Part shown: piece by piece, positions 7,326 to 35,019 of the stretch
How the letters are laid out: each line of letters opens with the position of its first letter
Numbering within the stretch: position 1 is the first letter of the stretch
Source: a virus
Lineage: Duplodnaviria; Caudoviricetes
Strand: one strand, 5' to 3'
DNA length: 60,541 nucleotides
IMG/VR virus record: IMGVR_UViG_3300042922_000817
Location: 1 to 60,541 of that record
Notes under the pieces: model-generated
Databases searched by the model: none
What the model saw: only the letters and a program-made list of their open reading frames with translations
Told to the model about the DNA's origin: nothing
Made by a program: the position numbers and the translations under genes

Positions 7326-10300
7326 CTATTCAGCAAATTCAATAGTATCTTTTAATGCGCTTTTTTGTTTCTTGTCCATTGAATCAATAGCACGTTCTTT
7401 ATTGTTCAAACTTTTACGGCGACGTTCATTTTCGATACGCTTCGGCGTGATTTTTAGCTCTTGTAGCCGTTTCCTATTTTCTGCTGTCGGATTCTTTATG
7501 AACGTATCAATTGCATCCTGTTCATCATTTTTGCGTTCATTACGTTCATTGTACATAGCATCTTTTAAATCTGTAGTAATGGCTTCATCTGTTGTTCTAA
7601 AGCCCATTGCATGTAAAATCCTTTCATAAGCAGAATCATAGGTTGTACCAACGCGGTGACGAGTAGTTCTTGTTTCACCAACAGCGGCTTGTAGCATATT
7701 ACCGAGTGCCGGGGAAAATGCTTTGATTGTTTCAATTGGATTGCCATTTGTGGCCTGTTTTAACATGCCGCTTACGGTGCTTCCTGCCGGTCCCATAAGT
7801 TGCATATCTGAAAAGAAGTTTGACATACCAGCACGATTTGAAATATCAATACCTACATTGCTCAAAATACCATACATAGCAGTATTCGCTATAGCTTGTT
7901 TCGTTGCATCTTTGCCGGCCCATTCCATTAAGATTTTTTTCGATGCTTCTTTTGGTTTCATACCCGTACATAGAGTGATAAGCTCATCGAATAAATCCAT
8001 AAAAGGAAATTGCCCCAATCCTGCAATCAATAAAAACGGTAGCCAGAACTTTGCGTTTTGTTTCCAATCTCCTTGTTTTGCAAGATTCATAATAAATTCC
8101 ATTTGCTTAATCGGATACTTTTGAAATTGGAATAGATTTTGCGTTATTACAGATCCGCGTCGAATCATGTTAGGCGCATCTTGTACTCCATAACTAAAGT
8201 TTGCATCACGATCCACTTCCTTGGCATACTCTAATGCCTTATAAGAAATTTTGTCACCAGGTGCCACCTTATACCCTTTAGCTTCAACACCTTGATAATA
8301 TGCACCTAATACAGCAGTTTTTCGCATAAGCGCATCTGCTTTCGCAAACAGGAACATTCCTTTATCCATAGTCCAATTCAACTTATCTGTTGTGAACTGT
8401 GCCGCACTTTTAATACCTTTCATTTTACCTGATGATTTTACGGAACTTCTACGTTGCGAATAACCACCGGCATCGGCTGAAATATTGATATCGTTAAGAG
8501 CACCACTTTCATCAATGATAAATTGATCTATTGGGCTTGGATTTAGCGCTTTTTTCAATCCTTTCATGGCATATTCATAGCTATTTGTTTTACCAACAAT
8601 GTTAAAAAACTGCATAAAGTTCATGAGCGCAGACGATGTATTAAAAAAACCAAGTTTTGCTTTAGCCATTGTTCCAGAAATACCAGAAGAGATCTGCAGT
8701 GCTGGTCGATCGCCGAAGTGGTCACCCAATACGGTTTGGAAAAATACGTTGCCTTTCAATGCATCATTTAAGGCGTTTTCAACTGATGTTGGATTGCCGT
8801 TAATATCGTTGATATAATTTTTGATATAGTTTGCGGTTTGATCTTTAGAATAGTCATCATCAAATCGGCCAAAGAATCTTTCGAACTGGCTTATTGCATC
8901 CGGTTTAAATTCTTCCATAGCAACATAACGGCTAGATGAATTGAAATAGTGATTGAGTACCCAGAATAAATCCTTCTCAAATCCCGCAGTACCTTTTCTA
9001 TGCAGCATGTTACCAAAGAATCTATGCCGTGCTTTTAATCCTGCACCAGATTCATGAAGGAATTCGCGAGCTTCTTTGAGTGTCATGTCCGTATTATCTG
9101 CAACCTGTTTTGTCATTTGAGCAAATTCATTATCACCTAGAACGGCTGCAATTTCTTTTTGCCCATCAAAGTTAAATTCTTTAGATCGAATCACATATTC
9201 CTTATCCGCATTTTGGGGTAGCCCTGCAATATCATTAGCTTTGTGAATTGCTTCCGATAATTTTTTGCCACTTCCAACAACCTGATAAGAATATCCTGAT
9301 TTGTTCGTAATATCTTTAACTTTTTCCATAATCATATATTCATGGAAAAAATGAGACAGATAACCTTCTCGATTTACCATAGGAGCAATTCTTTCAAAAT
9401 AATCTACTTTATATAAACCGTTTGGCTGCAGCATGGCTTTAGTTACTTGTATGTTTTCATCTTGCTTGAAACGTTCTAAGGTTTCTTGGTCAATAATCTC
9501 ATCTTGTTTACTCCACGTTTTAGGAGACTTATAGCTCACAAGATGTTTTTCATCATCTTGCTTAATTGTTTTAAGAACATCAACGAACTTATTTTGACGC
9601 AAATTTTCTAAATCAACATCGGACATAACTTTATTTCTAATCTTAACCTGTTGCCGAGTATCATTAATGAGATTGTATGCCTCTTTAAGTTTATTACGAA
9701 TCAGGTTATAGGCATGGATAGCATTATCACTAAGCCCCATTTCTTTTAAGTCTTTGACACTATATTCTTTTTGTTCAGCATCACCTTGCCATAGAGCCGC
9801 AGTACATTGTTCTAGGTCTTGATCTTTTTTGAGAAAAAATTGAACTTTCTTCATATCCTTTGCAAAAGAGTTACGCAACTTTTCTTGCAAGGCCATAGCT
9901 TTATCTGCTAGACGGAAGAAAATAGCAAAAACACGATGAGCTTTTGCTATTTCGGATGGAGAACGCCAAAGTTTATCGGACAAGCTCAACTTATCCCCCT
10001 TAGGCAAAGTATCTACGGTAACGTTACTTGCGGTTTTGATTTTCATGCCAGTTGCTTCTGCTAACTTTTTAACTGCACGTGAGGCAAGGTCTTTAACCAA
10101 TGTACTATCTTTAGACATAGAAAAAGCACCCTTTTCAGAGCGCGTTTCCTTTATTTCATGAAATTCTTCAAAGTTTTTTGAATAAGCAATTGCAGTATTA
10201 TCGACATTAAATCCAGCATTTTCATCTATGATTTTCCCCGTAGCTATTGACTCTAAAAGACCGTTGTTCTTTCTAAATATGCGTTTTCCTTCGGCATCAC

Positions 10301-13300
10301 GCATATCTGCAGCTATTTGATAGAACTTTGATTCCATTAAGTTACCTTGCGTTCTATTTAGTCCGATTGGTTCTAAATAAAGTCTTTTGAACTTCTGTAA
10401 AACATTATTGATAAACTCAATGAATCTTTCATACAGCGAAGGATCTTTCTTAGACAGCATTTTAGATAAACCAAGACGGCCTGCAACATCGGTCATTTTA
10501 TCAGCCATCATTTCCTCTATAATATCGTCATCAGACATTACATATTCGCCCTGTTCGTCAGTCATTTCACCCATTGCAATTTCTTTTCTGTATTCATCAA
10601 TTTGTGCTTGATTTATAAGGGAATGTTTCTGGATTGAATCTTTCAGATCATTGAATAAACGATTATTATTCCTTGTCATCCAATGAAAAGTTTCATGCCA
10701 AAAAGTCCATTGGGGAGTTAAATTACCATTTCGATTGAGATATGTTGTACCTCCTGCATGAAAACCACGTAGCCCGGATGGACCATCAAAAAAACGTACC
10801 TGGCAATTAAGTGTTTTGCCAAGATTGTTAATTCGATTTTCTTTATCGGTAAGCTTTTCAGTCGGAATGAACTTAATTTTAGCACCACTTTTATCTTGAA
10901 TCACTTGAATAATATCCGAATCTAAAATAGAATCATCGGCAGAAAACTTTATAGTCTTATCGCCACTGATAAACTTATCTGCCATATCGACAAAACGATC
11001 ACGAGAATCTTTACTGCTAAATAAAAAGCTTTTAGCAAAGCGGCTCCAATAACCATCATTTCGCTTAGCTAAAGAAGCAACCTTACGATAGTCATCTTTA
11101 TCTAAAGTTATGCTTGATGCTGCCGTATACTGCGTTTCTTTTGATTGGGTATTGATGTGTTCACCAATTGCAAAGTTACTTTCTGTTTGCGTAGTAGACG
11201 TGTTATCAGGTTTAGTTACGGATTCAGATAGTTGTTCTTTTTCGTTCACAGCCGGCGTAGTAACTTCAATACGGTCCGGCATATTCATATTTTTGATTCT
11301 ATCAAAGAATTCTTCGACATTTTTTGCATTTGAAATATCAGTTGCGCTTGAATGTACACGTTTGCGAAGTGACTCATTTTCAATTTTATCAATCACAAGA
11401 ATTTTAGTTCCAACCTTTGTTCCGGCTCTTTCAAATACAACACCTGGCAACTTGATTTCTTTTACAAGAATAGCGTCTTTTGCACCATCACGTTCCTCTT
11501 TTTCCTTTGCCTTTTCATCACCATAAAACCATTTATTAAAATGCTTCTGACAACTAGGTCCATCTGGAACAATTGCCACTATACGGCCACCATCACGCAA
11601 CTGCTTGTATGCTTTCGCTACATGTTCAATCGCTGTTTTTCCTCCACTTCCAAACGGTGGATTCATGACAATTGAATCAAATTTATTCCCGACATAGTAA
11701 TCTTCAAAGGTACTTGAAACCAGCTTTCCGTTACTGGACATTTGAGCTGATGTGGCAAGCTCCTTACTTGGTTCAATCATGACGTTTTCTGTGTTTGAAG
11801 GAAACCATCTTGAAATAGCACCATGGCCAGCTGATGGCTCTAAGACCTTTTCGCCTTGTTTGATATTGGCCCATTCAACCATCTTATAGCCGAGCGGTTC
11901 CGGTGTAGCAAAGTAATCATTACCCTCGGCAGATTTTGTTTTAGCATTCTTTTTGCCACGTCCATAATAGAAAGTCTTTGCACGATCGAACTCTGTTAAA
12001 GCTTCTCGTGTTGCTCTATCTTTTGCTTTCCCACCAATACCTTCGCCTTCGCTTCCTGGGAGGTTATCTTTCCATGTATCTGTTCCAAGTGTATCTTCAA
12101 AAGCACTAACAAATGCATCTTTCAAATTTCTTGCTTCGTTTCCTAATGCAAGATTCTCGGCCGTACTTGCACGTTCTGCGATCTTACTCGCAAAGGCCAT
12201 TCGTTCTGTATTCGTACCAGTATTGAGATAACGAAATATAGCATTTGATTTTTGTCCAACTCGATAGATACGACCTTCAATTTGAATTGCAGCTACTGGC
12301 TTCACTGGCATTCCTAAGTTAAGTAAAACACGTTGATGTTTTCCTGTTGTATCATGAAGACTTATACCGGCTTGCCCAGCATCAGATTGCACTAGGATAA
12401 TATCTTTTTTACTAGCGTCATCGTTGAAAAGCTGCACATTCTTTTCACGATCTTTCTTACTAATATCGCCATTAAATAAAAGAACATCCTCACCAAATGC
12501 TGATTTTAAAGTACTGATTGGGGATTGCAAATCACCTAAATCCAAATTAATTAAATCCGCCCGTTTTGATGCGAATTCATTATATTTTGCCTGTAATTCC
12601 TGTGGAACATTACTACGTTGGAATGGATGAATTGATCCGCCCTTTTTAAAATCATGAAATACTACAACCTTCTTACCGCTATCTCTATATTGCTTTATTA
12701 AATCAACAGCACCACGAGCCTTGATTGCCTCAAGTAAATACATTCGTTGATGATGCTTAAAACTGTTTTGCATATAATCATACAAATCTCTAAAGTCACC
12801 ATTTTTACTATCAGATAGCCATTCAAACCCTTCATCAACCTTATTACCTATACCGCCGTCAACCAGAATAAAGCCTCTATCGTAGTCTTTATCTACTGTC
12901 AACATACGTCCTGACAATGCACCATCATTTCTTAATTTCTCATGAAATTGACTTTCCATAACACTACTATCAACATTACCTTCCGGCCTTGTAAGCTTGT
13001 TATAACGCATACGATATCCGAAGTTTTCCAGCATAAATTGTTCTTGCCCGTTTGGTTCATTATATCGAGCACTATCTTTTTTAGCATAATCAAATAAATA
13101 ACCTTCGGCATAATCAATATTGGGAACATAAGCAAATGGCGTAGCTGAAAGGAATGTTACCTTCGGTTTCTTATCATCAGGAATATTCGACCACTGCTCA
13201 ATTGTCGCGTCTTGCTTTTTGTGAAGCTTATTCCATAGAGCTTTACTCTTTTTTTGCAACATAGAAAGTTTTGATTCTAAAGCTTTCTTATTGGTACTAC

Positions 13301-16300
13301 TCTTTAAGGCTTCATTTATAGCTTTGATATCTTTTTCAATATGATCTATTACAGCATATGCCTTTTCATTCAGACGATTAAATCGGTCGAATAAGCCTCG
13401 TTCATGATATGTAATAGCTCTTAAATTATCTAAGGCATTCGTTGGTGCGCTTTTTTCACTGCTCATAAGGCTTTGTGATTCATCTGCTACAACCAAGTCC
13501 CAATCACGATTAACAAGTTGATTGTTATCACCCATGTTTGCATATGTAGTGACAACAATTCCAGATCCTTTGTCCTTCGTATCTTCTAATTTACTGACAT
13601 CTAAATCAAAGTATTTTTTAGCTGCTTTTTGCCAATCAGTATTGATTTTATCACTTGGTGAAAGGATTAGAATATTATTTTTACCCTGCATTGCAAAACG
13701 TTTTATTACGCCAAGACCAGTAAATGTTTTTCCTGTACCGGTCCCATTTGTAAATAACACACCATTTTTTTCATTATTCAACAATCGATTTTCTGCAAAT
13801 ACTATATCTTCTTGTTGTTCAGGCAATAACATAGGCAGGGTATCACGAACATTATTCGTATCCCCTGCCTTGAAGTTTTCTTTATTCCCTTTTACGGCTG
13901 CGCGCTTAACGGTTGCATTGTCTGATCTGTTTTTAGAAGGTTTAAGATTTCCTCTGTTTCCTTTTGGGTCAGAAACGGGTTCTCCTTCATAGCTATCTCT
14001 AACGCTTCCTGATAATTCAGTACTTCCGGTGCTACGTTTCGAATTGCTGGATTCTTCTGTGCGTACTCGGCTATTGCTAACCGTTCCGCTAGAAGTGGTG
14101 CTATCTCCGTGAATGTGCATGCTACCTCGTGACTGTGTCCCTGTTTCATCAGGCGATTGTATTCCTTGTCGTCCGCTTCCACTGGATTCGGTTCCTGAAA
14201 CATCCTCCCCCACTGAGTTTTGATGCTCCCCTTGCCCAGTTCGTGGAGCCAATCTATCGGTGCTGCTAGAAGTGACATTTTGTATTTCCTCCTTTGTTGG
14301 GTATTTGATAACACCTGCATAGGCACTATCTACAAGATTGGCATATTCTTTACCAATCGTTTTTTCTAATTGTGTTTTCAATTCAGCTTTATCTGTAACA
14401 CCTTTATCGTATTGCGTACCAACATATCGCATTACGGCAGACATTTGATTTTCGTTGAATTTGAGATCCTTCGGGTAAGCATTAATAGCATCCCAAGTAC
14501 TTTGCAAGAAAGGTTTGGTTTGATCAGCTGTATCAATCATAGCCTTTGACCAATCCGCAAAGTTATTTAAGCCGCGTTGCAAGTGAATCATGCCTATTTT
14601 GAATGCTGCAGTCATAAGTTTCGGATTAAACATTGGATTTGCCGATATATTACTCATTTCAGTAGAAAACTCTTTCAATGCCTCATTTAATGCATCTTCA
14701 CTATCATCAATTACATGAAATGTTTTCGATTTTTCCGAAACGGGTTTTTCTAAACCAAAGGTACTTAACATATCATTGAGCGCATCTTCTTCACTGCCAA
14801 AGCGTTCTGCAGTTGATGATTGTTTTGGTAGCTGCTTTTCAGTTTCTTCACTCAAAGGTTTTTCTGCCGTTTCTTTTTGAATCGAATCTACTTGCTCTTT
14901 ATTTTGATTATCATTGATTGTGTTTACTTTATCTGTTGGAATATTACTTGATTGTACCGCTGAATTTGTAAAACTAGAAGTATTTACCCCTGCTTTTTCT
15001 AAACGCTTTCGCATATTGTCTATTGCGATTGGGCGATTTTGTTTTAGACCTGCCTTTAAAGTGCTGTTGACACGAAGTCCATTTTCTTGAGCAACTTTAA
15101 GAAGAGTTTGTCCTATATTTTCCGAGTTCACTTTTTCTTGAGATATATTCGGCATAATTACATTTGGAGCTTGCACTCCTGCAGTAGTATTTAACTCTTG
15201 CTGTGTATCAGTAGGCATGATCTGTGAATTTAAAGATTTAGTTTCCTGTGAATCCTCTTGGTTTGCATCATCGACTTTTCTTGCATTGATATCACCGAGG
15301 ACATTCGCAAGATTTGATAATGCTTCTTTCTTCTTCGGATCTACAAAGTTTTCCTGCTGTGTAGGTGTGAATCTTTCTATTGGTTTACTATTCTGACTAG
15401 ATGGATTTGTATTTATAGGCAAGTTACCTGAAGGAATCAAAGAACGAACCGCTGGTCTGTTTGAGAAGTAACTTGGCGCCGTCATACGAACCATACCATT
15501 ATCCAGCGGTTTCGCGGTGAACCCCTTTGATATAGAATCGTTTTTAAAATCGTTTACTTTGCTTTTAGGTAAATCAATGTATCCTTTAGCAGCAATACTA
15601 GCAATAGCGGTATTCCGGCTTACGGCAGTATTTTGTTTAGTTATCTTTGGAGCTTTTATTTCATTTTTCACACCACCATATTTTTCGGGGAAAAGAATAC
15701 TTGCCGTTTCTTCCGGCAATAATTTTGCAATTGATTCAATGTCGTGGTTATCAGTTGCTTTTGATAACTCATCAGTAAAGGCAATATCTGTGTTTGCATC
15801 TAAACCAGTAGGCATATTTGCTACATCTTCTGCCATTTGCAAAATCATAGAACTATTTTCTGGTGTAATTTGATTGGAACTTAAAGCATCTTGTAATTGT
15901 TGATCACGTTGCTTGATCTGCTCGTCTGTGAGTTTTGGACTAGATACGGCTGAACTATCTTTTTGAGAAGCCCCACCAGCTAGTGCCTCGCCATGATCAG
16001 AAAAATGAATATGTCCGCCAGTAGCATTTGCCGACGGATCGCTATATTCATCAAGTGCAGCCAATCCATATTTTTGTCCCTGCTCAATAAGCCACGCACG
16101 CGCCTCTGGATCATTAGCCAAAGTATCGTTTGCAATATCTACAGCTTGACCACTGTCGTGCCACGACGAACCATCACCATCACGTTTCATAGAAGTAATA
16201 TCCAACGTCTTCCCAAACTGATTATAATAGTCACGAGCTAATAAGTTGAGTTTTGTTTCCGTTAAGTCTGTCAGTCCTGTATTGGATACTTCACCAGTAA

Positions 16301-17831
16301 CATTATAAAACTTCTGAGTTGGAATATCGATACCGCCTTGTGAAGCATCTGCTGGCATATTTCCAAGAACTTTATTTAAATAAGTTGCTCCACCTTCAGT
16401 TATGCCTTTTTCCTGTATTGTGCCAGGGCCTTGATTATAAGCTGCAATGGCTTTATCAGCATCACCGTTAAAAGTATCAAGCAATTGGCGTAGATATCGT
16501 GTACCACCATCAATATTTTGTACAGGATCATACGAATTTGTAACTCCAAGGCTTTGTGCCGTAGCTGGCATAAGTTGCATAAGACCTTGTGCTCCAACTT
16601 CACTTGTAGCATTTTGATCATAAGTGGATTCAGTTCGAATAACAGCATGAATCAAATTAGGATCCACACCATATTTACCTGCAGCGTTATTTATCATCGA
16701 ATCAATATCACTGTTTCCTGATGACACACTTGATTGCGGTGCTTGCGTTTGTGCCTGTACCGCAGGTGCTTCTGTTCCAAGAGATTCATTTTCTTGCAAA
16801 GGCAGTGTAGGGTTAGACTTTCTATCGGCAAGCCATGTTGCTGTACGACCAGCTCCATGCATAACGCCCCCCATCATTGCCCCAACCAGAGCGGACTCCT
16901 TAACATCATCATCAGTTACACTCCACGGCTTATTAGCTGCATGTTTTTGAATGATTTGTTGTGTTCCTTCTTCCGCACCTTCGCTTGCCATTGTAGTAAT
17001 CATTCGGGCAAGGATATTAGCTGCTTTGCTTTTTGGGAAGATATGGCTTCCTTTTGTGAATGTAGCCATTGTTTCTGCTGAATTTGTTCCCGCAAGAAGT
17101 CCCATATTCATGTTAAAAACTTTATTACCTACATTCACAGCTTCTTGCTCCGTTTGTCCTTCTATGTAAGTGCCATTTTGCTTTGCTTCATTTACATAAT
17201 CATCCATAGCATTTTGTTTTTCCATAGCAGCTTCAGGAATAGCAGAAGCAACACCACCAGCAACGCCGGGAATAATCGTTTTACCTAAAGCTGGCGCTAC
17301 TCTACTTGTTATTTTTCCTATTGCAGAAGCTGCTCTTGGCGCATTACTAAATGCTTCTTGAAGTAATCCACCGCCCTTTAATAAGCCATTTTCAATAGAT
17401 TGCCCTGCTGATTGTATATTGCCGCTTCGAGCAGTAGCAGCAGCTCCGGCCGCTAAGGTTGCCATTGCAGGAAGTGATTGCACCATAGCAGATACATATC
17501 TTTTAGCCGTCCCAGGTGAATAGGTATGGGTATTACTATCTTCTAATTCTTTACCCCAATCTGCTGCAGCTTTACCAAAACTTTCATTAAGTCCAAAAAA
17601 ATTTTCTATTCCGTGAGCTTCATTCATGTTTTCTTGCCATGTAACAGGATCAATATATGATGGACGGCCTGCTTCAACAGCCATGTCCCTTACGGTATGG
17701 ATTGTGTTTCCGATTCCGTTTTTTAAGGCATCACTAAGAACACCACCCCATCCTTGACCGTCATCATTAGCAAGTGGTGAATTTGTATTAAACAGTTTGG
17801 GATTGTTTTCGAATATATTTGAATATGCCAT
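7326..17831 (-). CDS. 3501-aa polyvalent (DarB-like) virion/ejection protein: SLT transglycosylase, M15-like Zn peptidase, SF2 helicase, N6-adenine MTase, HExxH zincin-like and long C-terminal helical region
   Basis: Motifs IRTES/GLMQL/AAYNQG; SWHDSGQAVD...HIH; GTGTGKT/DESQ/SATP/QIEGRIYR; FATP/LEPSAGHG/NPPF; HETFH. It is the last gene of the ejection module. Confidence 0.88.
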   Translation of the reverse strand: MAYSNIFENNPKLFNTNSPLANDDGQGWGGVLSDALKNGIGNTIHTVRDMAVEAGRPSYIDPVTWQENMNEAHGIENFFGLNESFGKAAADWGKELEDSNTHTYSPGTAKRYVSAMVQSLPAMATLAAGAAATARSGNIQSAGQSIENGLLKGGGLLQEAFSNAPRAASAIGKITSRVAPALGKTIIPGVAGGVASAIPEAAMEKQNAMDDYVNEAKQNGTYIEGQTEQEAVNVGNKVFNMNMGLLAGTNSAETMATFTKGSHIFPKSKAANILARMITTMASEGAEEGTQQIIQKHAANKPWSVTDDDVKESALVGAMMGGVMHGAGRTATWLADRKSNPTLPLQENESLGTEAPAVQAQTQAPQSSVSSGNSDIDSMINNAAGKYGVDPNLIHAVIRTESTYDQNATSEVGAQGLMQLMPATAQSLGVTNSYDPVQNIDGGTRYLRQLLDTFNGDADKAIAAYNQGPGTIQEKGITEGGATYLNKVLGNMPADASQGGIDIPTQKFYNVTGEVSNTGLTDLTETKLNLLARDYYNQFGKTLDITSMKRDGDGSSWHDSGQAVDIANDTLANDPEARAWLIEQGQKYGLAALDEYSDPSANATGGHIHFSDHGEALAGGASQKDSSAVSSPKLTDEQIKQRDQQLQDALSSNQITPENSSMILQMAEDVANMPTGLDANTDIAFTDELSKATDNHDIESIAKLLPEETASILFPEKYGGVKNEIKAPKITKQNTAVSRNTAIASIAAKGYIDLPKSKVNDFKNDSISKGFTAKPLDNGMVRMTAPSYFSNRPAVRSLIPSGNLPINTNPSSQNSKPIERFTPTQQENFVDPKKKEALSNLANVLGDINARKVDDANQEDSQETKSLNSQIMPTDTQQELNTTAGVQAPNVIMPNISQEKVNSENIGQTLLKVAQENGLRVNSTLKAGLKQNRPIAIDNMRKRLEKAGVNTSSFTNSAVQSSNIPTDKVNTINDNQNKEQVDSIQKETAEKPLSEETEKQLPKQSSTAERFGSEEDALNDMLSTFGLEKPVSEKSKTFHVIDDSEDALNEALKEFSTEMSNISANPMFNPKLMTAAFKIGMIHLQRGLNNFADWSKAMIDTADQTKPFLQSTWDAINAYPKDLKFNENQMSAVMRYVGTQYDKGVTDKAELKTQLEKTIGKEYANLVDSAYAGVIKYPTKEEIQNVTSSSTDRLAPRTGQGEHQNSVGEDVSGTESSGSGRQGIQSPDETGTQSRGSMHIHGDSTTSSGTVSNSRVRTEESSNSKRSTGSTELSGSVRDSYEGEPVSDPKGNRGNLKPSKNRSDNATVKRAAVKGNKENFKAGDTNNVRDTLPMLLPEQQEDIVFAENRLLNNEKNGVLFTNGTGTGKTFTGLGVIKRFAMQGKNNILILSPSDKINTDWQKAAKKYFDLDVSKLEDTKDKGSGIVVTTYANMGDNNQLVNRDWDLVVADESQSLMSSEKSAPTNALDNLRAITYHERGLFDRFNRLNEKAYAVIDHIEKDIKAINEALKSSTNKKALESKLSMLQKKSKALWNKLHKKQDATIEQWSNIPDDKKPKVTFLSATPFAYVPNIDYAEGYLFDYAKKDSARYNEPNGQEQFMLENFGYRMRYNKLTRPEGNVDSSVMESQFHEKLRNDGALSGRMLTVDKDYDRGFILVDGGIGNKVDEGFEWLSDSKNGDFRDLYDYMQNSFKHHQRMYLLEAIKARGAVDLIKQYRDSGKKVVVFHDFKKGGSIHPFQRSNVPQELQAKYNEFASKRADLINLDLGDLQSPISTLKSAFGEDVLLFNGDISKKDREKNVQLFNDDASKKDIILVQSDAGQAGISLHDTTGKHQRVLLNLGMPVKPVAAIQIEGRIYRVGQKSNAIFRYLNTGTNTERMAFASKIAERASTAENLALGNEARNLKDAFVSAFEDTLGTDTWKDNLPGSEGEGIGGKAKDRATREALTEFDRAKTFYYGRGKKNAKTKSAEGNDYFATPEPLGYKMVEWANIKQGEKVLEPSAGHGAISRWFPSNTENVMIEPSKELATSAQMSSNGKLVSSTFEDYYVGNKFDSIVMNPPFGSGGKTAIEHVAKAYKQLRDGGRIVAIVPDGPSCQKHFNKWFYGDEKAKEKEERDGAKDAILVKEIKLPGVVFERAGTKVGTKILVIDKIENESLRKRVHSSATDISNAKNVEEFFDRIKNMNMPDRIEVTTPAVNEKEQLSESVTKPDNTSTTQTESNFAIGEHINTQSKETQYTAASSITLDKDDYRKVASLAKRNDGYWSRFAKSFLFSSKDSRDRFVDMADKFISGDKTIKFSADDSILDSDIIQVIQDKSGAKIKFIPTEKLTDKENRINNLGKTLNCQVRFFDGPSGLRGFHAGGTTYLNRNGNLTPQWTFWHETFHWMTRNNNRLFNDLKDSIQKHSLINQAQIDEYRKEIAMGEMTDEQGEYVMSDDDIIEEMMADKMTDVAGRLGLSKMLSKKDPSLYERFIEFINNVLQKFKRLYLEPIGLNRTQGNLMESKFYQIAADMRDAEGKRIFRKNNGLLESIATGKIIDENAGFNVDNTAIAYSKNFEEFHEIKETRSEKGAFSMSKDSTLVKDLASRAVKKLAEATGMKIKTASNVTVDTLPKGDKLSLSDKLWRSPSEIAKAHRVFAIFFRLADKAMALQEKLRNSFAKDMKKVQFFLKKDQDLEQCTAALWQGDAEQKEYSVKDLKEMGLSDNAIHAYNLIRNKLKEAYNLINDTRQQVKIRNKVMSDVDLENLRQNKFVDVLKTIKQDDEKHLVSYKSPKTWSKQDEIIDQETLERFKQDENIQVTKAMLQPNGLYKVDYFERIAPMVNREGYLSHFFHEYMIMEKVKDITNKSGYSYQVVGSGKKLSEAIHKANDIAGLPQNADKEYVIRSKEFNFDGQKEIAAVLGDNEFAQMTKQVADNTDMTLKEAREFLHESGAGLKARHRFFGNMLHRKGTAGFEKDLFWVLNHYFNSSSRYVAMEEFKPDAISQFERFFGRFDDDYSKDQTANYIKNYINDINGNPTSVENALNDALKGNVFFQTVLGDHFGDRPALQISSGISGTMAKAKLGFFNTSSALMNFMQFFNIVGKTNSYEYAMKGLKKALNPSPIDQFIIDESGALNDINISADAGGYSQRRSSVKSSGKMKGIKSAAQFTTDKLNWTMDKGMFLFAKADALMRKTAVLGAYYQGVEAKGYKVAPGDKISYKALEYAKEVDRDANFSYGVQDAPNMIRRGSVITQNLFQFQKYPIKQMEFIMNLAKQGDWKQNAKFWLPFLLIAGLGQFPFMDLFDELITLCTGMKPKEASKKILMEWAGKDATKQAIANTAMYGILSNVGIDISNRAGMSNFFSDMQLMGPAGSTVSGMLKQATNGNPIETIKAFSPALGNMLQAAVGETRTTRHRVGTTYDSAYERILHAMGFRTTDEAITTDLKDAMYNERNERKNDEQDAIDTFIKNPTAENRKRLQELKITPKRIENERRRKSLNNKERAIDSMDKKQKSALKDTIEFAE

Positions 17832-17845
17832 ATCTTATTCCCCCA

Positions 17846-19462
17846 TTATGTATGTGGTTTATAGTTACTGACCCATTGAGAATAGGTTAGACTTACAGGT
17901 CCATCGTCCGTATAAAACGTATATTTATCACCAAGTTTACCAGCTAAATACTTTTCTCCAAGCGCATTATTTAAATGTTGTATAGCCGCATAATTTTCCG
18001 TATTGCTGATATCGGGATTATCCTGATAATCTTGATATGTTTTGTCAATGTCATCTCCAACTTCGGCTATTTTATTTTTTAAAAGCGCAGGATCATTTAT
18101 GCTAGAAAGAGATTGAATTTCATTGTATATCCGTCCGGTTGCTTCAGTATATTTAGCCTGGTCTTTAGTTACTTTTGTTCCATCAGCGTTAAATCCATAC
18201 GGCGCATTGCCTTTATTCCCCTTAAATCCACCTTCGTATAACGCAGCGTCATAATTAAGTTTTCTTCCAAGTCGATTATCTTGCCCAGTCTCTTTCATTG
18301 CAGTAATACGTTGACTGGTGGTATTATTGTTGTCATTGTTACGCATAGAAACCTTACCTGTATATTCCGTGTTTGGCGATAATGAATTTCGTACCGTAGC
18401 GAAAGAATCATTTCCCATACCATTAGCTGAAAATTTATTAAATACAGTTTCGCCACCAAGACTAGTTGTATCAAGTTTGTATTCCGGTTGGTTATTTTTA
18501 GCCCAAGTGTTAATATCACTAGCCTTAGCCCCTGTGAATTTAAGCAGGATAGGAAGAGCTGCCATAAGAGATTTTGTATCTCCAGTTTGAGCAAGCTTCA
18601 TAATGTTTGCATATGCTTGATTTGTAAGACTTTCTTTTTCAGCTGATTGCATTTGAGTTACTTCATTACTTGCACGTTTGAGTACATCGTTTATAATATT
18701 TCGATCATACCCTTTACTCATAAGAGTATCTTCTAACTTCTCTAAGTATTTCGGATCTTTCATTCGAGCCGATGCCAACTGCTCAGCATATGATTTAACG
18801 GTATCGTCAAGAGAATTTCCATTCTCCTTATAAATATCATTAAGTGTAATAATATTTCCACGATTATAATCTTTTTGCGCATCAGTAGCTGTTTTATCTA
18901 TGGTTGATTGAAAGAGGCCTTGTTGTGACTGCGGTTTTTCGGTTGCTGCATATTGAGGGGCAAAATCAAGGTTTCCAAGTAAACCTTTTTGTGGTTGTTC
19001 TTGCTGACTCTGCGGTACGGCATTTTGAATAACTCCTTGATCATTGTTAAGAGGATTATTTGAGCTATAGCCATCCATGTTAATCCCCTTTATTTGAGCT
19101 AATCGTCTTGCATAATCGGCATTTTTATGAGCAGTATCCATGGATTGAATCCACTGCTTTGTTTCAGGTGCATCACCGTATCCATTATTTTGCGCCCATG
19201 CAAGATTGTTTTGTGCTTTATCATATGCCGTTTTTTGCTGATTAACGATTTCTTGCGGAGTTAGACCAATAATACCAACGCCAGCGTCTTTGCTCTGATT
19301 GAATAAAGCATCACGCGCTTTGTTGATTTCTTCTGATGTAGGGCCATTGTAATTTTCGAGATCCTGACGAGCCTTTCTTAAATCGCTGTTTTGCATACGG
19401 TCAACAATTGAACCACCTAGATTCTTACCAAGTAAAAAACCTATATCGTCCCACGTTACCAT
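17846..19462 (-). CDS. Putative DNA-ejection (internal virion) protein
   Basis: Q/N/A-rich helical protein located between the pilot-like gene and the giant protein; assignment is positional. Confidence 0.55.
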   Translation of the reverse strand: MVTWDDIGFLLGKNLGGSIVDRMQNSDLRKARQDLENYNGPTSEEINKARDALFNQSKDAGVGIIGLTPQEIVNQQKTAYDKAQNNLAWAQNNGYGDAPETKQWIQSMDTAHKNADYARRLAQIKGINMDGYSSNNPLNNDQGVIQNAVPQSQQEQPQKGLLGNLDFAPQYAATEKPQSQQGLFQSTIDKTATDAQKDYNRGNIITLNDIYKENGNSLDDTVKSYAEQLASARMKDPKYLEKLEDTLMSKGYDRNIINDVLKRASNEVTQMQSAEKESLTNQAYANIMKLAQTGDTKSLMAALPILLKFTGAKASDINTWAKNNQPEYKLDTTSLGGETVFNKFSANGMGNDSFATVRNSLSPNTEYTGKVSMRNNDNNNTTSQRITAMKETGQDNRLGRKLNYDAALYEGGFKGNKGNAPYGFNADGTKVTKDQAKYTEATGRIYNEIQSLSSINDPALLKNKIAEVGDDIDKTYQDYQDNPDISNTENYAAIQHLNNALGEKYLAGKLGDKYTFYTDDGPVSLTYSQWVSNYKPHT

Positions 19463-20610
19463 GTGCCTTCACCACCTTTTGCCACAAAGCCATTAGCAAT
19501 ATAGTTATTCACGCCACTAATTTGGAGATCGTAAACCTTATATTCCCCGCGATAGCCAATGGATGCAACCTTGCCTACGTCATATAGAGACATACCCACT
19601 GTTAAGTCTTTGACAAGAATATACTCACCATCATCTTTTAGTAACGGCTGAGAATCCGTTGTCTCTACAACTTTTCCTATATCGGTAGCAACTTCATACA
19701 CATCGTTATAATGCGGTGGCATAAGAGCGATTACTGTTTCTTTTTCTGAGCCATGACTTGCTACTCCATCCCCAACTTGCATATCTTCAATATTTCGCGT
19801 AGTCCCGTCAGCGAGTGTTATTTTTGTTCCGGTTACAAAACAAAATAGACCTGAATTGCTGGCAAGACCACCTAATACGCTACCGAATAAACCACCTCCA
19901 CCCGATTGTGTAGATGTACTTGTGGTAGTCCCTTTTCCGGAAAGAGAGTTCAACGCTCCAAGAGTACCGCCTTGATTAATACCAAGTGACATATTCCATA
20001 ATTGCGATGGCGTTTCAAGTGATGCTTCCTGCCCGGCAAGTGCTGTTTGAATTGGTGCGTTTGCCAAAGATGATTGCTGTCCATACAATCCGTTGAGTGT
20101 AGACACATTGTTTAGATAATTTTGTGCCATAGTATCTGAAACATTTTTGCTAATATCATTTAATGCACCTGACGTTACGGAGCTATTCAACACACCAGAC
20201 TGAGCAAGATTATTCATTGTACTACCTACCGTTTTATCTACACCGGATTTAATTGAATCTGTCATATTTTGAGTATAGCTTGTCGGTAAAATGCCTTGAG
20301 TTAAATTACTTACACCTTGCTGTGCAGCAGTCTGCTGCTTCAATGCATCATTAGTTAAATTGCCATAGTTAACATTAACCGTACCATATGCATCCTTGAT
20401 TTGATTCGCTGCTAGGTTATTTAGGTTTAAAGCATTCGGTGCAACTGCCTTTGAATAATCCAATGCATTTTGTTGTAAGCCTACCTCTTGTGCCGTTGGC
20501 GTATACGACTGGACATTGGTTGTACTTGAACCTTTCTTAAACATTTGCAGATCAATTTTCATAAAAAAAATTACAGGTAATTCATACTCTGCAATTGATT
20601 CATAGTTCAT
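19456..20610 (-). CDS. Putative ejection/pilot protein with an N-terminal Prp-type motif and a C-terminal Hint domain
   Basis: IDLQMF|KKG at aa 19-27; S/T/Q/N-rich body; GGGGLFGSVLGGL segment; Hint begins CFVTGTKI at Cys257 and ends VYDL...NNYIANGFVAKG. Confidence 0.8.
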   Translation of the reverse strand: MNYESIAEYELPVIFFMKIDLQMFKKGSSTTNVQSYTPTAQEVGLQQNALDYSKAVAPNALNLNNLAANQIKDAYGTVNVNYGNLTNDALKQQTAAQQGVSNLTQGILPTSYTQNMTDSIKSGVDKTVGSTMNNLAQSGVLNSSVTSGALNDISKNVSDTMAQNYLNNVSTLNGLYGQQSSLANAPIQTALAGQEASLETPSQLWNMSLGINQGGTLGALNSLSGKGTTTSTSTQSGGGGLFGSVLGGLASNSGLFCFVTGTKITLADGTTRNIEDMQVGDGVASHGSEKETVIALMPPHYNDVYEVATDIGKVVETTDSQPLLKDDGEYILVKDLTVGMSLYDVGKVASIGYRGEYKVYDLQISGVNNYIANGFVAKGGEGTW

Positions 20611-20612
20611 AT

Positions 20613-21032
20613 TTAATTCACCTCACTTGTACAAAAATATGCGTATTCACCTGTTTTATTATCTAACCATGCAGTTGATATAGTTACCATTAGACCTTCT
20701 TTATTGTGGCCATTCCATCTAACAGCACCATTGTCTTCTTTGATTTCTTCTTCAATGACCCACCCCCAAAAACGAATATATGGTTTGATATGCCTCGTAC
20801 ATATCGTTGTAATATATCGCAATCTATTTTGCTTGCACATAATAATGCCAAGGTCAAACCAAAACTTAGCATCACCACAGAGTTCGTAAACATACAAGGC
20901 TTCTCTATCCGTATCCATTATGTATTGGCAATAACCGCGATCCGGTAAAAAATATTCAACATAACCTGTCGGAAGTTCATGTTTATCACCAGTTTTTTCT
21001 TCGTATTTTTTTATGTACTCATTAAGCGTCAT
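20613..21032 (-). CDS. Hypothetical virion-assembly protein (possible GNAT-like fold by position)
   Basis: Position before the ejection genes as in podoviruses; start at MTLNEY after GGCGGTG. Confidence 0.45.
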   Translation of the reverse strand: MTLNEYIKKYEEKTGDKHELPTGYVEYFLPDRGYCQYIMDTDREALYVYELCGDAKFWFDLGIIMCKQNRLRYITTICTRHIKPYIRFWGWVIEEEIKEDNGAVRWNGHNKEGLMVTISTAWLDNKTGEYAYFCTSEVN

Positions 21033-21052
21033 GATTAACACCGCCATTCGAA

Positions 21053-22171
21053 TTATAACGACTTTGCGAGACGGAAACCAATGCCTACGCTAGAGATCGA
21101 AGCTGCAGTGGCGTCGGCGTAGAACGTAAACAAGCCACCAAGGGTACCGAGGCCCCAACTGCCACTTCTAAGCAAGACCGTTGTTCCGCTATTAGCAAAC
21201 CAAAAGCCATTGCTACCCTTATAGGAAATTCCAGTACCAGACGCAGGAATACAATCTTTTGCAATGATAGTATCAGCACGTAATAGCAAGAACGTATTGC
21301 CACTCGTACCAAATGCAGGCGCTATCCCTGTGCTAACCAGCGCATTATTTGCATCGTAAATCCAAAGCGTTCCATTAACAAGTTGTATACCGTCGATCAT
21401 TTCCCACACGTTACCAACCATATCGGCAATACCGCTATCGCGCAGATTGTGATTCCACGTTACAGGCCCAGTGCCAGTGAGCGTTCTACCAGAACATGTT
21501 GCATCAGGAGTTCCAGCAATTCCTACACCATCTACACCACTTGTAATGTTGCCTTCTGGATAAAGATTCATTAATTTGCACCAAAGAGCTATATTACACC
21601 ATTCGCGATTGCGCACCATGTGAAATCCATTTCCTTTTGCTGTAGCCGCAGCAGATGCCGCTGTAAAAGTTAGATTACACCAAGGAATTATATTTTTCTT
21701 TGTAACAGGCGTTGTACCACTACCTTCACCTGTGTTCGTCGCAGTATTACGCGATGCTTGATATTTACCAATCCAGAATCCATCCCCACAGCCGTCGGCT
21801 TCAAGCCAGTTCGGGAATAAGAAATATTCTTCGCCGGAATACGTCGATTCGGCCATGCCTTTAGCAAATGTTAGGTCGGCGGTACGTGGCACGTAGGAAA
21901 CGAGGTAATCTTTGTAGTTCTCACTGACCGACGGTGCCGTCGCAAAGTTGAAGAATAGACCGTTGCTTTCTTCGGTGAAATCCGTTCCTGGTGCAAGGGA
22001 AACACCGTTTTTCCAGATCAGCAAGCTGCTGGCGGTGAACCGGCCAAGACCTTTCCATCCGATGCAGAACCGTTTCCGGCTGCCGTCCGGCGGTAGGAAT
22101 AGCGGTTCAAATACGGCGCCTTCCGCTATCGTATAGATTGGGAAGTTATTTGCTTGAATGACAATATCCAT
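21053..22171 (-). CDS. Receptor-binding protein with an FGE-sulfatase/C-type-lectin fold (Mtd-like, DGR-target type)
   Basis: GFWIGKYQAS, GIADMVGNVWEM and RSGSW...IGFR C-terminal motifs. Confidence 0.8.
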   Translation of the reverse strand: MDIVIQANNFPIYTIAEGAVFEPLFLPPDGSRKRFCIGWKGLGRFTASSLLIWKNGVSLAPGTDFTEESNGLFFNFATAPSVSENYKDYLVSYVPRTADLTFAKGMAESTYSGEEYFLFPNWLEADGCGDGFWIGKYQASRNTATNTGEGSGTTPVTKKNIIPWCNLTFTAASAAATAKGNGFHMVRNREWCNIALWCKLMNLYPEGNITSGVDGVGIAGTPDATCSGRTLTGTGPVTWNHNLRDSGIADMVGNVWEMIDGIQLVNGTLWIYDANNALVSTGIAPAFGTSGNTFLLLRADTIIAKDCIPASGTGISYKGSNGFWFANSGTTVLLRSGSWGLGTLGGLFTFYADATAASISSVGIGFRLAKSL

Positions 22172-26468: not shown

Positions 26469-27650
26469 TTATGCCCGTCTGATATTGGTAATAGATCCTG
26501 AAGCTTTCGGCTGCGTGCCTTGTAAACCAAACCAACCTTCAAGTACAAACTCGCTATAGGAACCTTTCTTTGCAAGACCCTGTACTTCATGTGGGCGTTT
26601 GAACCATTTTAAATCCCAATATGCCATATCCATGATATCGATACGTTTATCACCATACATACGGTGAGCTTTGGCTGTTACTTCACCAAAGTCAGATACA
26701 TAAACATCGGTAACATTCTGAACTTTCTTGTCTTTAGCACTGCTTTGTTTAGTAGCACCGCCAGTGATAATTTGGCTAAATCTACGTTTATTCCGCCCAC
26801 TCATAAGAGCAATTGTAGGATTGCCACCACGATCAAAACACATCTGCATTGCATCATTGATATGATCTTCTGTATAAAGCGAGCTGCCAGCATCGACAAT
26901 ATTATTTTTAACTGCAATCAATGAACCTGTTCCATTATCTTTAAGGGTAATTGAATCTTTCCCTTCAACGGCACTTTCAAGATCATCAAAAAGCGTAAAT
27001 GTTTTTTCTGAAACTTTTTGAATCCAATAAGGGATACTTGAGGAAAGATCCGCCGGTAATGCATCACCTTTGGTACCGGACGTTTTAAAGTAAATAAAAT
27101 CGCCAGTATCTAATTTGTGTGGATCAGTTGTCGTTACAATGCCAGTTGTAGAATCAAAGGCAACTGCGAACTTTTCTTCTTGCATAAAATAAGGAATGCC
27201 ACCAGTCAATGCCGGATTAGCTCCACTTTCAAGTCTTGCTTCTGTATTCGCTACAATTGCATACTCCATATCCCTAGCCTGTTGTTTAAATGCAATCTCT
27301 TTTTGACGCAAGAATTCATCTGTTTCCGTATACACTTTCTTTACATCACGTTGGGCATCGGAAACTTTACCAGTATTCACAAAGAACTGGCAGTTGTTAT
27401 CTCTGCGTTCAATGCTGCCGACTTTTTCCGTTTTATAATCTGTCATTTCAAGATTCGCATTTTTGCGTGGTGGTTTTAATCCTTCTGTAAGCCAGTTAAA
27501 CTGCAAGTTATCAGCATCTTTTGCGGTACCGAGATTCGAAAGTAAATAAGTCAAGTCTGGATCAATGTTTGTGATAATGTTACTGTAGTCATCTTTCAAT
27601 CCAATCGCCTCATAAGTTGTGGATTGAGAACTAGATTTTTGAATTGCCAT
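26469..27650 (-). CDS. Major capsid protein (DUF5309/SU10-like) with an internal insertion domain
   Basis: IITNIDPDLT, FNWLTE, NNCQFF, RDMEYAI and VYVSDFG motifs; follows the scaffold gene. Confidence 0.85.
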   Translation of the reverse strand: MAIQKSSSQSTTYEAIGLKDDYSNIITNIDPDLTYLLSNLGTAKDADNLQFNWLTEGLKPPRKNANLEMTDYKTEKVGSIERRDNNCQFFVNTGKVSDAQRDVKKVYTETDEFLRQKEIAFKQQARDMEYAIVANTEARLESGANPALTGGIPYFMQEEKFAVAFDSTTGIVTTTDPHKLDTGDFIYFKTSGTKGDALPADLSSSIPYWIQKVSEKTFTLFDDLESAVEGKDSITLKDNGTGSLIAVKNNIVDAGSSLYTEDHINDAMQMCFDRGGNPTIALMSGRNKRRFSQIITGGATKQSSAKDKKVQNVTDVYVSDFGEVTAKAHRMYGDKRIDIMDMAYWDLKWFKRPHEVQGLAKKGSYSEFVLEGWFGLQGTQPKASGSITNIRRA

Positions 27651-27721: not shown

Positions 27722-28870
27722 TTATGGATTTTGTTTTAATACATTTCTAAGGAATTCACTACGCTGCCTAGCATCCATTGTGCGCATCTGCCGAAAATCA
27801 ACTTTTACAGGTGGTGTACTTCCACCGCCTCCGGCACCCTCAACTATTGGTGGTTTTATCTTAGGAGCAGGCTGTGGAGTTTTACTGACACCAGATAACT
27901 TAGAGTAAAACGTCTCTCTTGCCGCCTTGTAATATTCATCAAGAATCGGTAAATCAGCACGAGTATAGGTTTGATTCTTTAATCGTTCTAATACTGGTGC
28001 AATCTTTGTTGCTTGGCTATACGGTAACGTTTGATAATGCGTCTGCATCAAGTGATCAATCTCGCCAAAGTGTGGATCTTTTTGATACTCCGTAATAACT
28101 GGAACCATTTCTTGCAAGGCTGCATGTGTTTCGGCTTGTGCTGATTTCACTTGCTCTTTTTCCTGCGTGACTTCATTTAACAAAGATTGAATGTTCGTTG
28201 TCATAGCAATATCGTACAACTTCTTTTTACTAATGCTTTCCGCGTCATCGTTATAACTAAGTTCTTCAAACTGTGCAGCTGTCATACCTAAATCTTTTAA
28301 GGCTCTCGCTTCTGCAATCTTTTGAATCTGTTGATAAACTTCAATTGAATTTACTTCTTCTTTTGGCGCTTCCTCTGTTACTTGAGCCGGTTGCTGCACT
28401 TGCGGTTGTTGCATCTGCTGCATAACCTGTTTTTGATAAGCTAGTTGCTGTTGTGCTTGGATAGCAGCGTAATGCGCTTTCAGATTATCAGGAATACGAC
28501 TTTCATCAACACTTCCTGTTGTCATTGCTTCAACTAGATCATTCGTTGTATATGGTGCGGCTGTACCCGATGTCACTTCATCATTGTTTGGCTCTTCAGT
28601 TTCCTTAGTTTCATCATTACTACCTTCTGATGTCGGTTGTACAATCTTTCGTTGCCCTGTTATTTCATCAAGAACAATTGCAAATTCAGGAGTAGTCGTT
28701 TCCTCTTGTGTTTGGTGTGATTCAGTTGTTGTCACATTAGCCTGAATAGGCTCCGTTGCTGTCGTTCCTGCTTCTACTTCGGAAGTAACCACTGTATCTG
28801 GTGTAATTGTTTCACTCCCTGCGGTACCATCCTCCGAAAACATTTTTAAATCAAAAATAAATGGTTTCAA
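27722..28870 (-). CDS. Scaffolding protein with an N-terminal Prp-type cleavage motif (FDLKMF|SE)
   Basis: Acidic low-complexity N-terminus, helical body, Pro/Gly-rich tail; lies between portal and capsid. Confidence 0.75.
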   Translation of the reverse strand: MKPFIFDLKMFSEDGTAGSETITPDTVVTSEVEAGTTATEPIQANVTTTESHQTQEETTTPEFAIVLDEITGQRKIVQPTSEGSNDETKETEEPNNDEVTSGTAAPYTTNDLVEAMTTGSVDESRIPDNLKAHYAAIQAQQQLAYQKQVMQQMQQPQVQQPAQVTEEAPKEEVNSIEVYQQIQKIAEARALKDLGMTAAQFEELSYNDDAESISKKKLYDIAMTTNIQSLLNEVTQEKEQVKSAQAETHAALQEMVPVITEYQKDPHFGEIDHLMQTHYQTLPYSQATKIAPVLERLKNQTYTRADLPILDEYYKAARETFYSKLSGVSKTPQPAPKIKPPIVEGAGGGGSTPPVKVDFRQMRTMDARQRSEFLRNVLKQNP

Positions 28871-34541: not shown

Positions 34542-35019
34542 TTAGTGCACGCTCCCTTGCTTTCTTTAAGGTATCAGCAATACCAACGCTACCAGTAAGT
34601 TCAACGTCTTTCTTATCTCGCCATACATCTGGTTTACGATTCTTAAGCCAAAAGATTTGCGCTGTAGTATCGGGAGGCACAAACACTTCTTCATCTGCAT
34701 ACTCAATATGTTCTTTTTCACTGATACGCTTGCCATTATCGTACAGGACTTCTTTTACCTTGATAGCCTTCGTGACTGTCTCTTTGAAACCTAAAGCCTT
34801 TTGCAGTAGCGCATTTTCAACTTGACGATCAACAATTTCCTTGCCTTTTTTTAAGGTGTCAGATATGACAGGATGCTTCTTTATCCAATCGTATAAAGTT
34901 TGCCTTCTAATTCCCATGTTCGTAGCTATCTGTTCATCAGTTAAACCATCATGTGCCCAACCTTGAATCTTAATTAATCCTTCTTCTGTAAGCCACTTCT
35001 CGTATTTACCTTTTGCCAT
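34522..35019 (-). CDS. terS: Terminase small subunit
   Basis: N-terminal HTH and PDTTAQIFWLKNRKPDVWRD motif; overlaps terL. Confidence 0.85.
   Translation of the reverse strand: MAKGKYEKWLTEEGLIKIQGWAHDGLTDEQIATNMGIRRQTLYDWIKKHPVISDTLKKGKEIVDRQVENALLQKALGFKETVTKAIKVKEVLYDNGKRISEKEHIEYADEEVFVPPDTTAQIFWLKNRKPDVWRDKKDVELTGSVGIADTLKKARERALNGCKEE

Follow-up and report, generated by a model that had tools for sequence, protein, structure and literature searches.

A terminal Hint domain without canonical histidines on a putative phage virion protein, and its predicted Hedgehog-like self-removal

We analyzed a viral DNA sequence of 60,541 nucleotides (nt) (Duplodnaviria; Caudoviricetes; positions 1 to 60,541 of IMG/VR record IMGVR_UViG_3300042922_000817), which we refer to in its entirety as the window. 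One of its genes, located on the minus strand (19456-20610), encodes a protein of 384 amino acids (aa) whose translated open reading frame (ORF) comprises a leader, a helical N-terminal domain (N-domain), a Gly-rich tail and a terminal Hint domain. Known Hint domains comprise inteins, Hedgehog processing domains, bacterial intein-like (BIL) domains and pre-toxin modules. The C-terminal segment C257-W384 is a genuine Hint domain, and we propose with moderate confidence that it is an active, N-cleaving domain that removes itself and would leave K25-F256 with a plain carboxyl end. Such processing would combine the topology of Hedgehog, and a resemblance to BIL domains, with a helical protein of the ejection type. 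As part of the same explanation, the source of the window would be a podovirus-like phage with relatives in Negativicutes genomes. All the features described below lie on the minus strand.

The original prediction, made from the sequence alone, had placed an atypical Hint domain at this C-terminus, and both profile and structure searches bore this out. In Pfam, PF05203 matched aa 257-311 above its cut-off (32.6 bits against 32.1; E = 1e-7). Weaker, sub-threshold matches were obtained for PF14890 (aa 347-376), PF13403, PF01079 and Vint, and PF07591 (PT-HINT) did not match the window's own protein at E ≤ 1. All 42 relatives aligned with this protein carry Hint-family matches, which at E ≤ 1e-3 correspond to PT-HINT in 34 of them, Hint in 20, Hom_end_hint in 18, Hint_2 in 15, Intein_splicing in 11 and Vint in 3. 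When the family profile was searched against PDB sequences, the eight distinct matches at E ≤ 0.01 were all Hint domains, headed by the BIL domain of Clostridium thermocellum (2lwy_A; E = 3.1e-10). The structural check suggested along with the original prediction also returned a Hint fold: the AlphaFold2 (AF2) model computed from the 42-sequence alignment presents a per-residue confidence (pLDDT) above 90 over residues ~257-380 and below 50 over the N-terminal 254 residues. A Foldseek search of this model against the PDB yielded 66 matches at E ≤ 1e-3, with inteins, BILs and Hedgehog at the head of the list. The best of them was the gp41-1 intein (6riz; E = 4.8e-10; TM by target 0.88; root-mean-square deviation of 1.6 Å over 128 columns), followed lower down by BIL2, 2lwy (E = 1.8e-7; TM by target 0.76) and Hedgehog 1at0 (E = 1.6e-6; TM by target 0.68). 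Neither the AF2 model nor the sequence of the Hint contains a homing endonuclease insert. Finally, a tblastn search of 50,697 cultured-phage records matched 10 of them, only over Hint residues ~254-345; these are inteins located in other genes, and no match covered 80% of the query.

The Hint domain spans aa 257-384 (19459-19842) and starts in the context ...SNSGLF'CFVTGT, where the apostrophe marks the junction between F256 and C257. Cys257 (19840-19842), the nucleophile at Hint residue 1 (Cys1), is the single Cys of the whole 384-aa protein. It is preceded by a Gly-rich hydrophobic tail (aa 236-256; SGGGGLFGSVLGGLASNSGLF; 19843-19905), which ends at the predicted scissile bond F256-C257 and was disordered in both AF2 models (whole protein and N-domain). 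Block B is found at T318-D-S-Q321 (19648-19659), within the motif TTDSQP (residues 317-322), where the Thr is kept and a Gln replaces the canonical His. A block-F-like VYDL motif contains Y360-D361 (19528-19533) and aligns with VYN/IDI of 2lwy and gp41-1. Near the end of the domain, ANGFVAKG (residues 372-379) includes A377-K378-G379 (19474-19482) at the positions equivalent to the x-His-Asn of inteins. Only the five residues GEGTW (19459-19473) separate these from the stop codon (19456-19458); a short tail of this kind is kept in close relatives, with the consensus KGGTNEW. These motifs and the Gly-rich segment are all located where they had originally been read. The accompanying statement that no C-extein follows is correct in substance, although not literally, given that GEGTW follows AKG.

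Conservation was assessed in a family set of 268 proteins, 180 of which match a Hint hidden Markov model (HMM) that we built; the residue counts given here refer to these 180 Hint-bearing relatives. Cys1 is present in all 180, Y360 in 178, F258 in 177, T318 in 177 (Ser in the other 3), Q321 in 176 (Glu in 3 and His in 1), D361 in 171 (Glu in 8) and N368 in 160. C257, Y360, T318, F258, Q321 and D361 rank with the best-conserved positions of the Hint, and these include the Cys and the Gln whose conservation had been put forward as a check on the original prediction. Position 378 is more variable (Lys in 110, Gln in 25, Glu in 20, Asn in 3, and others), and position 379 is mostly Gly (161) or Ala (10). 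No His-rich column was found across the Hint of the 180 relatives, and the His share exceeds 34% in none. The pair His-Asn was never observed at positions 378-379 (0/180); two proteins present "HN" within their last 15 residues, away from the Hint terminus. At the -1 position before Cys1, we observed Phe in 59 relatives, as in the window's protein, Ala in 54, Trp in 35, Met in 6 and other residues in the remainder.

The alignment to 2lwy pairs the BIL motif TTFDHP with the family motif TTLTQP, so that Q321 occupies the block-B His position, which agrees with the substitution noticed at the outset. In the alignment to gp41-1, the block-B His is one residue out of register relative to the family. 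The second His of 2lwy and gp41-1 (FHTY and NHLF, respectively) pairs with Asn368 of the family in both alignments. Where inteins typically have three histidines, the phage Hint has Gln321, Asn368 and Lys378, and the terminal Asn is replaced as well; the nucleophile Cys1, the block-B Thr and the block-F Asp are kept. Because those three histidines are replaced, catalysis must rest on Cys1, Thr318, Gln321, Asp361 and strain at the junction. The conservation of the catalytic columns makes a decayed domain unlikely, since decay would not be expected to keep them. With no terminal His-Asn, no +1 nucleophile and no C-extein, the sequence excludes splicing, C-terminal cleavage by Asn cyclization and the release of a cargo, in line with the original claim that the domain cannot splice. 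Judging from this residue pattern, an N-terminal acyl shift is the sole chemistry that can remain.

The Hint is nearly always the last element of these proteins: in 176 of the 180 relatives the chain continues for 0-9 residues past the Hint profile, and the four outliers present 13, 14, 29 and 52 residues. One rare member, P0208 (532 aa), extends ~50 residues past the Hint (...LTIAELKNMADYRGLTYKSRPKKAELIALLREE); by eye only, this extension resembles a small helix-extended-helix DNA-binding motif.

Many relatives of the protein do not carry the Hint domain. A word-indexed search of the full protein returned 700 proteins at E ≤ 1e-3 among 8000 scored; among the 120 matches listed, lengths were 358-404 aa, with 47-86% identity and 91-99% query coverage. 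We searched the N-domain (aa 1-256) with phmmer against 1.84 billion representatives, which yielded 268 proteins at E ≤ 1e-3, 126 at E ≤ 1e-10 and 52 at E ≤ 1e-30. Among the best 150 of these 268 representatives, 62 match the Hint HMM and 88 do not, the latter number including fragments as well as P0220, in which a divergent Hint with Glu at the block-B position can be recognized by eye. The Hint-less proteins that reach the end of the N-domain profile number 57, and in 51 of these the chain ends no more than 15 residues from where the Hint would start. Phe is the last residue in 25 of the 57, and 22 end with the pattern G-[LIF]-[FLI](G), typically ...GGGGLFSGLLGGLF. These ends are of the same Gly-rich type as the segment found just before Cys1 when a Hint is present. 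In a Selenomonas locus (L010), for instance, a 240-aa homologue ends ...GGLLGGLF-TAA and the next gene begins 14 nt downstream; tblastn did not find a Hint anywhere in the 20.6 kb of this locus. We considered that the Hint-less proteins might be truncated at contig ends and rejected this possibility, given the G-[LIF]-[FLI] end shared by 22 of them and the stop codon followed by another gene in the Selenomonas locus. These end points suggest that many relatives directly encode, through a stop codon, the product predicted for Hint self-cleavage. Since the Hint-less homologues end at the same Gly-rich tail, the product that is needed looks like a plain C-terminus.

We further analyzed the distribution of the Hint on a tree of the N-domain containing 66 rows, of which 34 carry a Hint and 32 do not. 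The tree left out 85 rows: 58 with several or no N-domain matches, 26 that were partial and 1 whose long tail is unexplained. Presence and absence of the Hint are interleaved on this tree. The label requires 19 changes, and well-supported branches force at least 11 of them; shuffled labels required 22 changes on average, and as few changes as observed were needed in 58 of 500 shuffles. These many gains or losses suggest that the Hint is an exchangeable add-on to an otherwise equivalent protein. It has evidently been gained or lost repeatedly with the rest of the protein undisturbed, a pattern that would fit a removable module. The family also varies in the N-domain itself. Many members of 426-667 aa present an internally repeated helical N-domain (at least three HMM stretches; e.g., P0129, P0131, P0138-P0140, P0142, P0145 and P0148), with the terminal Hint present or absent, and portions of the N-domain occur in several copies in two proteins of ~1420-1440 aa.

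In the mechanism that we propose, Cys257 would attack the F256-C257 peptide bond through an N-S acyl shift, the resulting thioester would be resolved by water or by a small thiol, and the Hint of ~14 kDa would be discarded. The mature C-terminus would then be ...SNSGLF-COOH, i.e., the Gly-rich hydrophobic tail. Together with Prp-type removal of a 24-residue leader, loss of the Hint would produce K25-F256 (aa 25-256; 19843-20538), a predicted mature protein formed by the helical domain and assignable to no named family. Cleavage without splicing is described for type B BILs and for Hedgehog (PMC4031507, PMC7664689), and bulky -1 residues are reported to be able to compensate for a lost block-B His in the N-S acyl shift (PMC6333167); the phage protein has Phe at -1. 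As a guess at its function, the Hint might be a detachable cap covering the hydrophobic tail while the particle is still under construction, or it might serve during that period as a handle for assembly.

The other end of the protein presents the features of a Prp substrate. Translation is expected to start at the ATG at 20610, which has a Shine-Dalgarno-like GAGGTG 8 nt upstream; M17 was considered as the true start and ruled out, as it lacks a Shine-Dalgarno site whereas M1 has GAGGTG. The first 24 residues (20539-20610) constitute a predicted Prp-type propeptide with a predicted cut after F24, the N-terminus reading MNYESIAEYELPVIFFMKIDLQMF'KKGSS and the leader ending ...KIDLQMF'KKGSS. The published motif for L27 and Prp is given as MLxx(D/N)LQ(F/L)F'A(S/H)KK (PMC9405229), and the capsid and scaffold proteins of phage 80alpha are described as being cut by Prp at such a site (PMC5744158). 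A Prp cysteine protease gene is present in the phage itself (32736-33065; PF04327; 56.5 bits against a cut-off of 27; E = 3.3e-15), so that both the leader motif (KIDLQMF'KK) and the enzyme are available. A leader of the same type (FIFDLKMF'SEDG) is found on a 382-aa ORF in the scaffold position, between the portal and major capsid genes (27722-28870; N-terminus LKPFIFDLKMF'SEDG; no Pfam or PHROG family). A related leader, (K)FDLQLF'GG, occurs in 43 of the 268 family proteins and in 19 of the 34 rows of an alignment of Hint-less homologues (A2), which indicates that the Prp-like leader is a feature of part of the family. We consider cleavage of the leader by Prp plausible. With at least two late proteins carrying L27-like leaders next to a phage Prp, these results suggest phage-directed Prp maturation in a phage of diderm Firmicutes. 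The idea that the protein is processed at both ends is thus partly upheld: the N-terminal cut is plausible from the leader motif and the phage Prp, and the C-terminal cut would follow from the Hint chemistry proposed above.

The helical N-domain gives few clues as to the role of the protein. Modeled with AF2 on alignment A2, it presents four long helices and a disordered Gly-rich end (mean pLDDT of 70.6). A PHROGs scan of the whole protein returned no family, and no credible Pfam family was found for the N-domain in the 34 members of A2, the best of the scattered weak matches being DUF2884 (4/34; E = 0.0011). Foldseek of the N-domain model against the PDB gave nothing at E ≤ 1e-3; the best match had E = 0.35 and the top of the list consisted of generic long-helix proteins. 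In BFVD, the only significant matches were two members of the family from uncultured human-virome phages, both named "Hint", and weak matches at E = 0.02-0.3 were named internal virion or DNA transfer protein. The nearest clusters of the ESM Atlas are unnamed, with a P22_gp7 label on 13% of one cluster (score of 0.88), which we treat as a lead only. Homology to a characterized ejection protein was not detected with PHROGs, Pfam or Foldseek against the PDB. The label of pilot or ejection protein is reasonable but unproven, its basis being the position of the gene, the helical character of the protein and these weak fold leads; we infer that the protein would be packaged and ejected.

Several observations weigh against self-cleavage and against the role that we assign to the protein. 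According to PMC6333167 and PMC4031507, most inteins are considered to need the block-B His for their first step. The block-B, block-F and penultimate histidines are all missing here, and the chemistry could therefore be very slow or absent. Compensation by a bulky -1 residue cannot be general, because Ala occupies this position in 54 of the 180 relatives. If a stop codon yields the same product, the benefit of keeping the Hint is unexplained. The strict Prp-like leader is limited to the 43 proteins mentioned above, and 50 of the 268 begin with MGKK and have no leader. Virion location is putative: the N-domain has no PHROG or Pfam family and no PDB fold match at E ≤ 1e-3, and no full-length relative was found among the 50,697 cultured-phage records. 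Cleavage itself is a prediction from sequence and modeled structure.

Some of these points would be accommodated if the Hint never left the protein and served as a stable structural module, such as a plug or an assembly or docking handle within the capsid, with a chemically dead site. To this reading we assign a modest probability. The substitution of all three canonical His positions speaks for it, as does the statement in the intein literature that the block-B His is essential (PMC6333167), and the conserved ...KGGTNEW tail of close relatives could be a binding element. However, Cys1 is invariant across the 180 relatives and is the sole Cys, and so is not there for a disulfide; T318, Q321 and D361 are among the most conserved columns; and the Hint-less proteins end where the Hint starts, which is expected of a processing site and hard to explain if the Hint is permanent. 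A further reading supposes that the domain no longer has any function and is a relic, derived either from an intein that decayed or from a pre-toxin HINT cassette whose C-terminal toxin was lost. The PT-HINT match in 34 of 42 relatives fits such an origin, as do the 4 of 180 members with 13-52 aa past the Hint, including the ~50 of P0208. We nevertheless judge it very improbable: the family is large and old, with at least 62 clusters at 50% identity carrying the Hint, its catalytic columns are near-invariant, and it presents no homing endonuclease insert and no C-extein. In addition, none of 296 candidates of 673-2000 aa carries this Hint at E ≤ 1e-3, although this is weak evidence.

Self-cleavage might also end in transfer instead of hydrolysis. 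The Cys257 thioester would be attacked by a specific acceptor, for example peptidoglycan, an amine or hydroxyl group on a lipid, or an amine of another virion protein, and the tail would be covalently anchored or ligated, as in cholesteroylated Hedgehog or in the ligation of type A BILs by aminolysis. The chemistry that follows the first step is described as the same in Hedgehog and BILs (PMC7664689, PMC4031507), the Gly-rich, hydrophobic tail adjoining the thioester would suit a membrane, and the conserved Gln and Asn that replace His might delay hydrolysis and favor a held thioester. Against this, the 0-9 residues that follow the Hint in 176 of 180 relatives offer nothing like a region for the recognition of a sterol or another acceptor, and no candidate acceptor gene co-varies with the Hint, the upstream neighbor orf144 being present in all 10 related loci including the Hint-less one. 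Moreover, an adduct cannot be required for the function of the family, because interleaved Hint-less homologues end with a plain carboxylate at the same tail. The chance that transfer occurs is in our view small. The lipidation or Hedgehog-like transfer put forward in the original prediction is accordingly not supported: the Hint is followed by no acceptor-binding region, only by five residues, and the Hint-less relatives reach the same terminus simply through a stop codon. A more elaborate version combines transfer with delay. The His-free Hint (Cys/Thr/Gln/Asp/Asn) would act as a slow conditional latch that holds the thioester or the uncut bond inside the capsid and resolves at assembly or at DNA ejection, and the Gly-rich tail would be moved onto a nucleophile of the host envelope or of another virion protein, covalently anchoring part of the channel for DNA delivery. 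The combined scenario has a slim chance of being correct; if true, a Hedgehog-like modification reaction would be used by a phage infecting a diderm Firmicute. Simple self-removal of the Hint, with release of the plain carboxyl end that relatives encode directly, remains the reading that we favor.

The gene belongs to a late operon on the minus strand in the order TerS (34522-35019), TerL (33066-34541), Prp, portal (29148-31178), the 382-aa ORF in the scaffold position, major capsid protein (26469-27650), tail-region ORFs, orf144, the Hint-bearing gene, a 538-aa ORF and a 3501-aa protein with an SLT domain. One of the tail-region genes (21053-22171) encodes a 372-aa protein assigned to phrog_2889 (E = 5.6e-40); this protein also presents a sub-threshold match to FGE-sulfatase (formylglycine-generating enzyme-like; 18.7 bits against 23.3). 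Directly upstream of the Hint-bearing gene, orf144 (20613-21047) encodes 144 aa with no Pfam family. A homologue of orf144 is the immediate upstream neighbor in 10 of 10 related loci, and its product may be a partner or a chaperone of the N-domain. Directly downstream is the 538-aa ORF (17846-19462), for which no family was found. Its ATG overlaps the end of the Hint-bearing gene by 7 nt (19456-19462), and this overlap suggests translational coupling of two putative internal proteins. The 3501-aa polyvalent protein (7326-17831) matches the Pfam families SLT (103 bits), ResIII, Helicase_C, Helicase_C_4 and MTS. These matches correspond to an SLT transglycosylase at aa 379-476, a ResIII/Helicase_C/Strawberry-notch-type helicase at aa ~1339-1909 and a methyltransferase at aa ~1995-2104, and long stretches of the protein have no family. 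Podovirus ejection proteins are arranged in this way, with a small, a middle and a large SLT-bearing product encoded behind the tail genes (see also PMC8954989), and the 3501-aa protein would close a putative ejection-protein block of this kind.

The 10 related loci were found in five Megasphaera, one Phascolarctobacterium, one Acidaminococcales, one Selenomonas and two contigs of metagenome-assembled genomes labeled Prevotella and Ruminococcus. The Hint is present in 9 of the 10. The Prevotella and Ruminococcus labels (loci L001 and L006) could reflect mis-binned phage contigs or a wider host range; the other hosts are all Negativicutes. The family is common in prophages of gut and rumen-type Negativicutes and is carried by cultured Megasphaera strains, namely M. 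paucivorans DSM 16981, M. massiliensis NP3 and M. hexanoica MH (loci L002, L003 and L009), which makes the predictions testable.

In the literature searched, no account came up of a cargo-less Hint at the terminus of a protein of the phage internal-virion type; most subscription journals were outside the scope of this search and a prior mention is possible. The words "intein" and "Hint" do not occur in a review of ejection proteins (PMC8954989). Database records already give the automatic name "Hint" to the two family members found in BFVD. What appears to be new is a Hint of Hedgehog topology, cargo-less and histidine-free, on a protein of the phage virion module, with natural Hint-less counterparts. 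If cleavage is real, phages would mature a virion protein by self-processing of Hedgehog topology, beside the routes that use proteases and chaperone domains, and a natural and widely conserved Hint would work without any canonical histidine. This would bear on the catalysis of the N-S acyl shift and on intein engineering, and the natural Hint-less counterparts would provide a clean experimental comparison.

Among known systems, the closest fold is that of the class 1 mini-intein gp41-1, which is cyanophage-like (6RIZ/6QAZ). The two domains have Cys1 and the VYDL...NxYxAN motifs in common. In contrast to gp41-1, the phage Hint described here lacks THN, the His-Asn end, a C-extein and a +1 Cys, Ser or Thr, and so cannot splice. 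With HhC of Hedgehog (1AT0), it shares the C-terminal topology of a cargo followed by a Hint, the lack of a terminal Asn and, as predicted for the phage protein, the use of only the first acyl shift. In Hedgehog, a sterol-recognition region after the Hint directs cholesterol transfer, and HhC needs such a region. The phage protein differs in having 5 residues past the Hint and no acceptor region, with Hint-less homologues that make the same end, and HhC keeps the block-B His whereas the phage Hint has Gln. PT-HINT (PF07591), which is matched by close relatives and not by the window's own protein as described above, differs in its setting: no toxin or other cargo follows the phage Hint, and its context is a phage late operon rather than a secretion system.

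The BIL domain 2LWY is the best PDB sequence match and shares the Hint fold, Cys1 and the context of block B (TTFDHP in the BIL and TTDSQP in the phage protein). BILs likewise lack a +1 nucleophile, and their products are described as cleaved and not spliced (PMC4031507, PMC7664689). Unlike in the BIL, the block-B His has become Gln in the phage Hint, which sits at the extreme C-terminus of a protein of the virion module with nothing to release. Relative to type A BILs, which are described as having a C-terminal His-Asn (PMC4031507), the phage Hint lacks this pair. Type B BILs are said to lack similarity to block G and only to cleave; compared by description only, the phage Hint has no His-Asn but keeps a block-G-like NxYxANGF. 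The remaining comparisons concern the protein outside the Hint. It shows no significant match in sequence or fold to podovirus ejection proteins or to the Prp-processed capsid and scaffold proteins of 80alpha. Like the podovirus ejection proteins (T7 gp14 and P22 gp7-type), it lies between the tail genes and a giant SLT protein and is predicted to be all-helical with a flexible hydrophobic end, and its L27-like leader and phage Prp have their parallel in the capsid and scaffold proteins of 80alpha, as described in PMC5744158.

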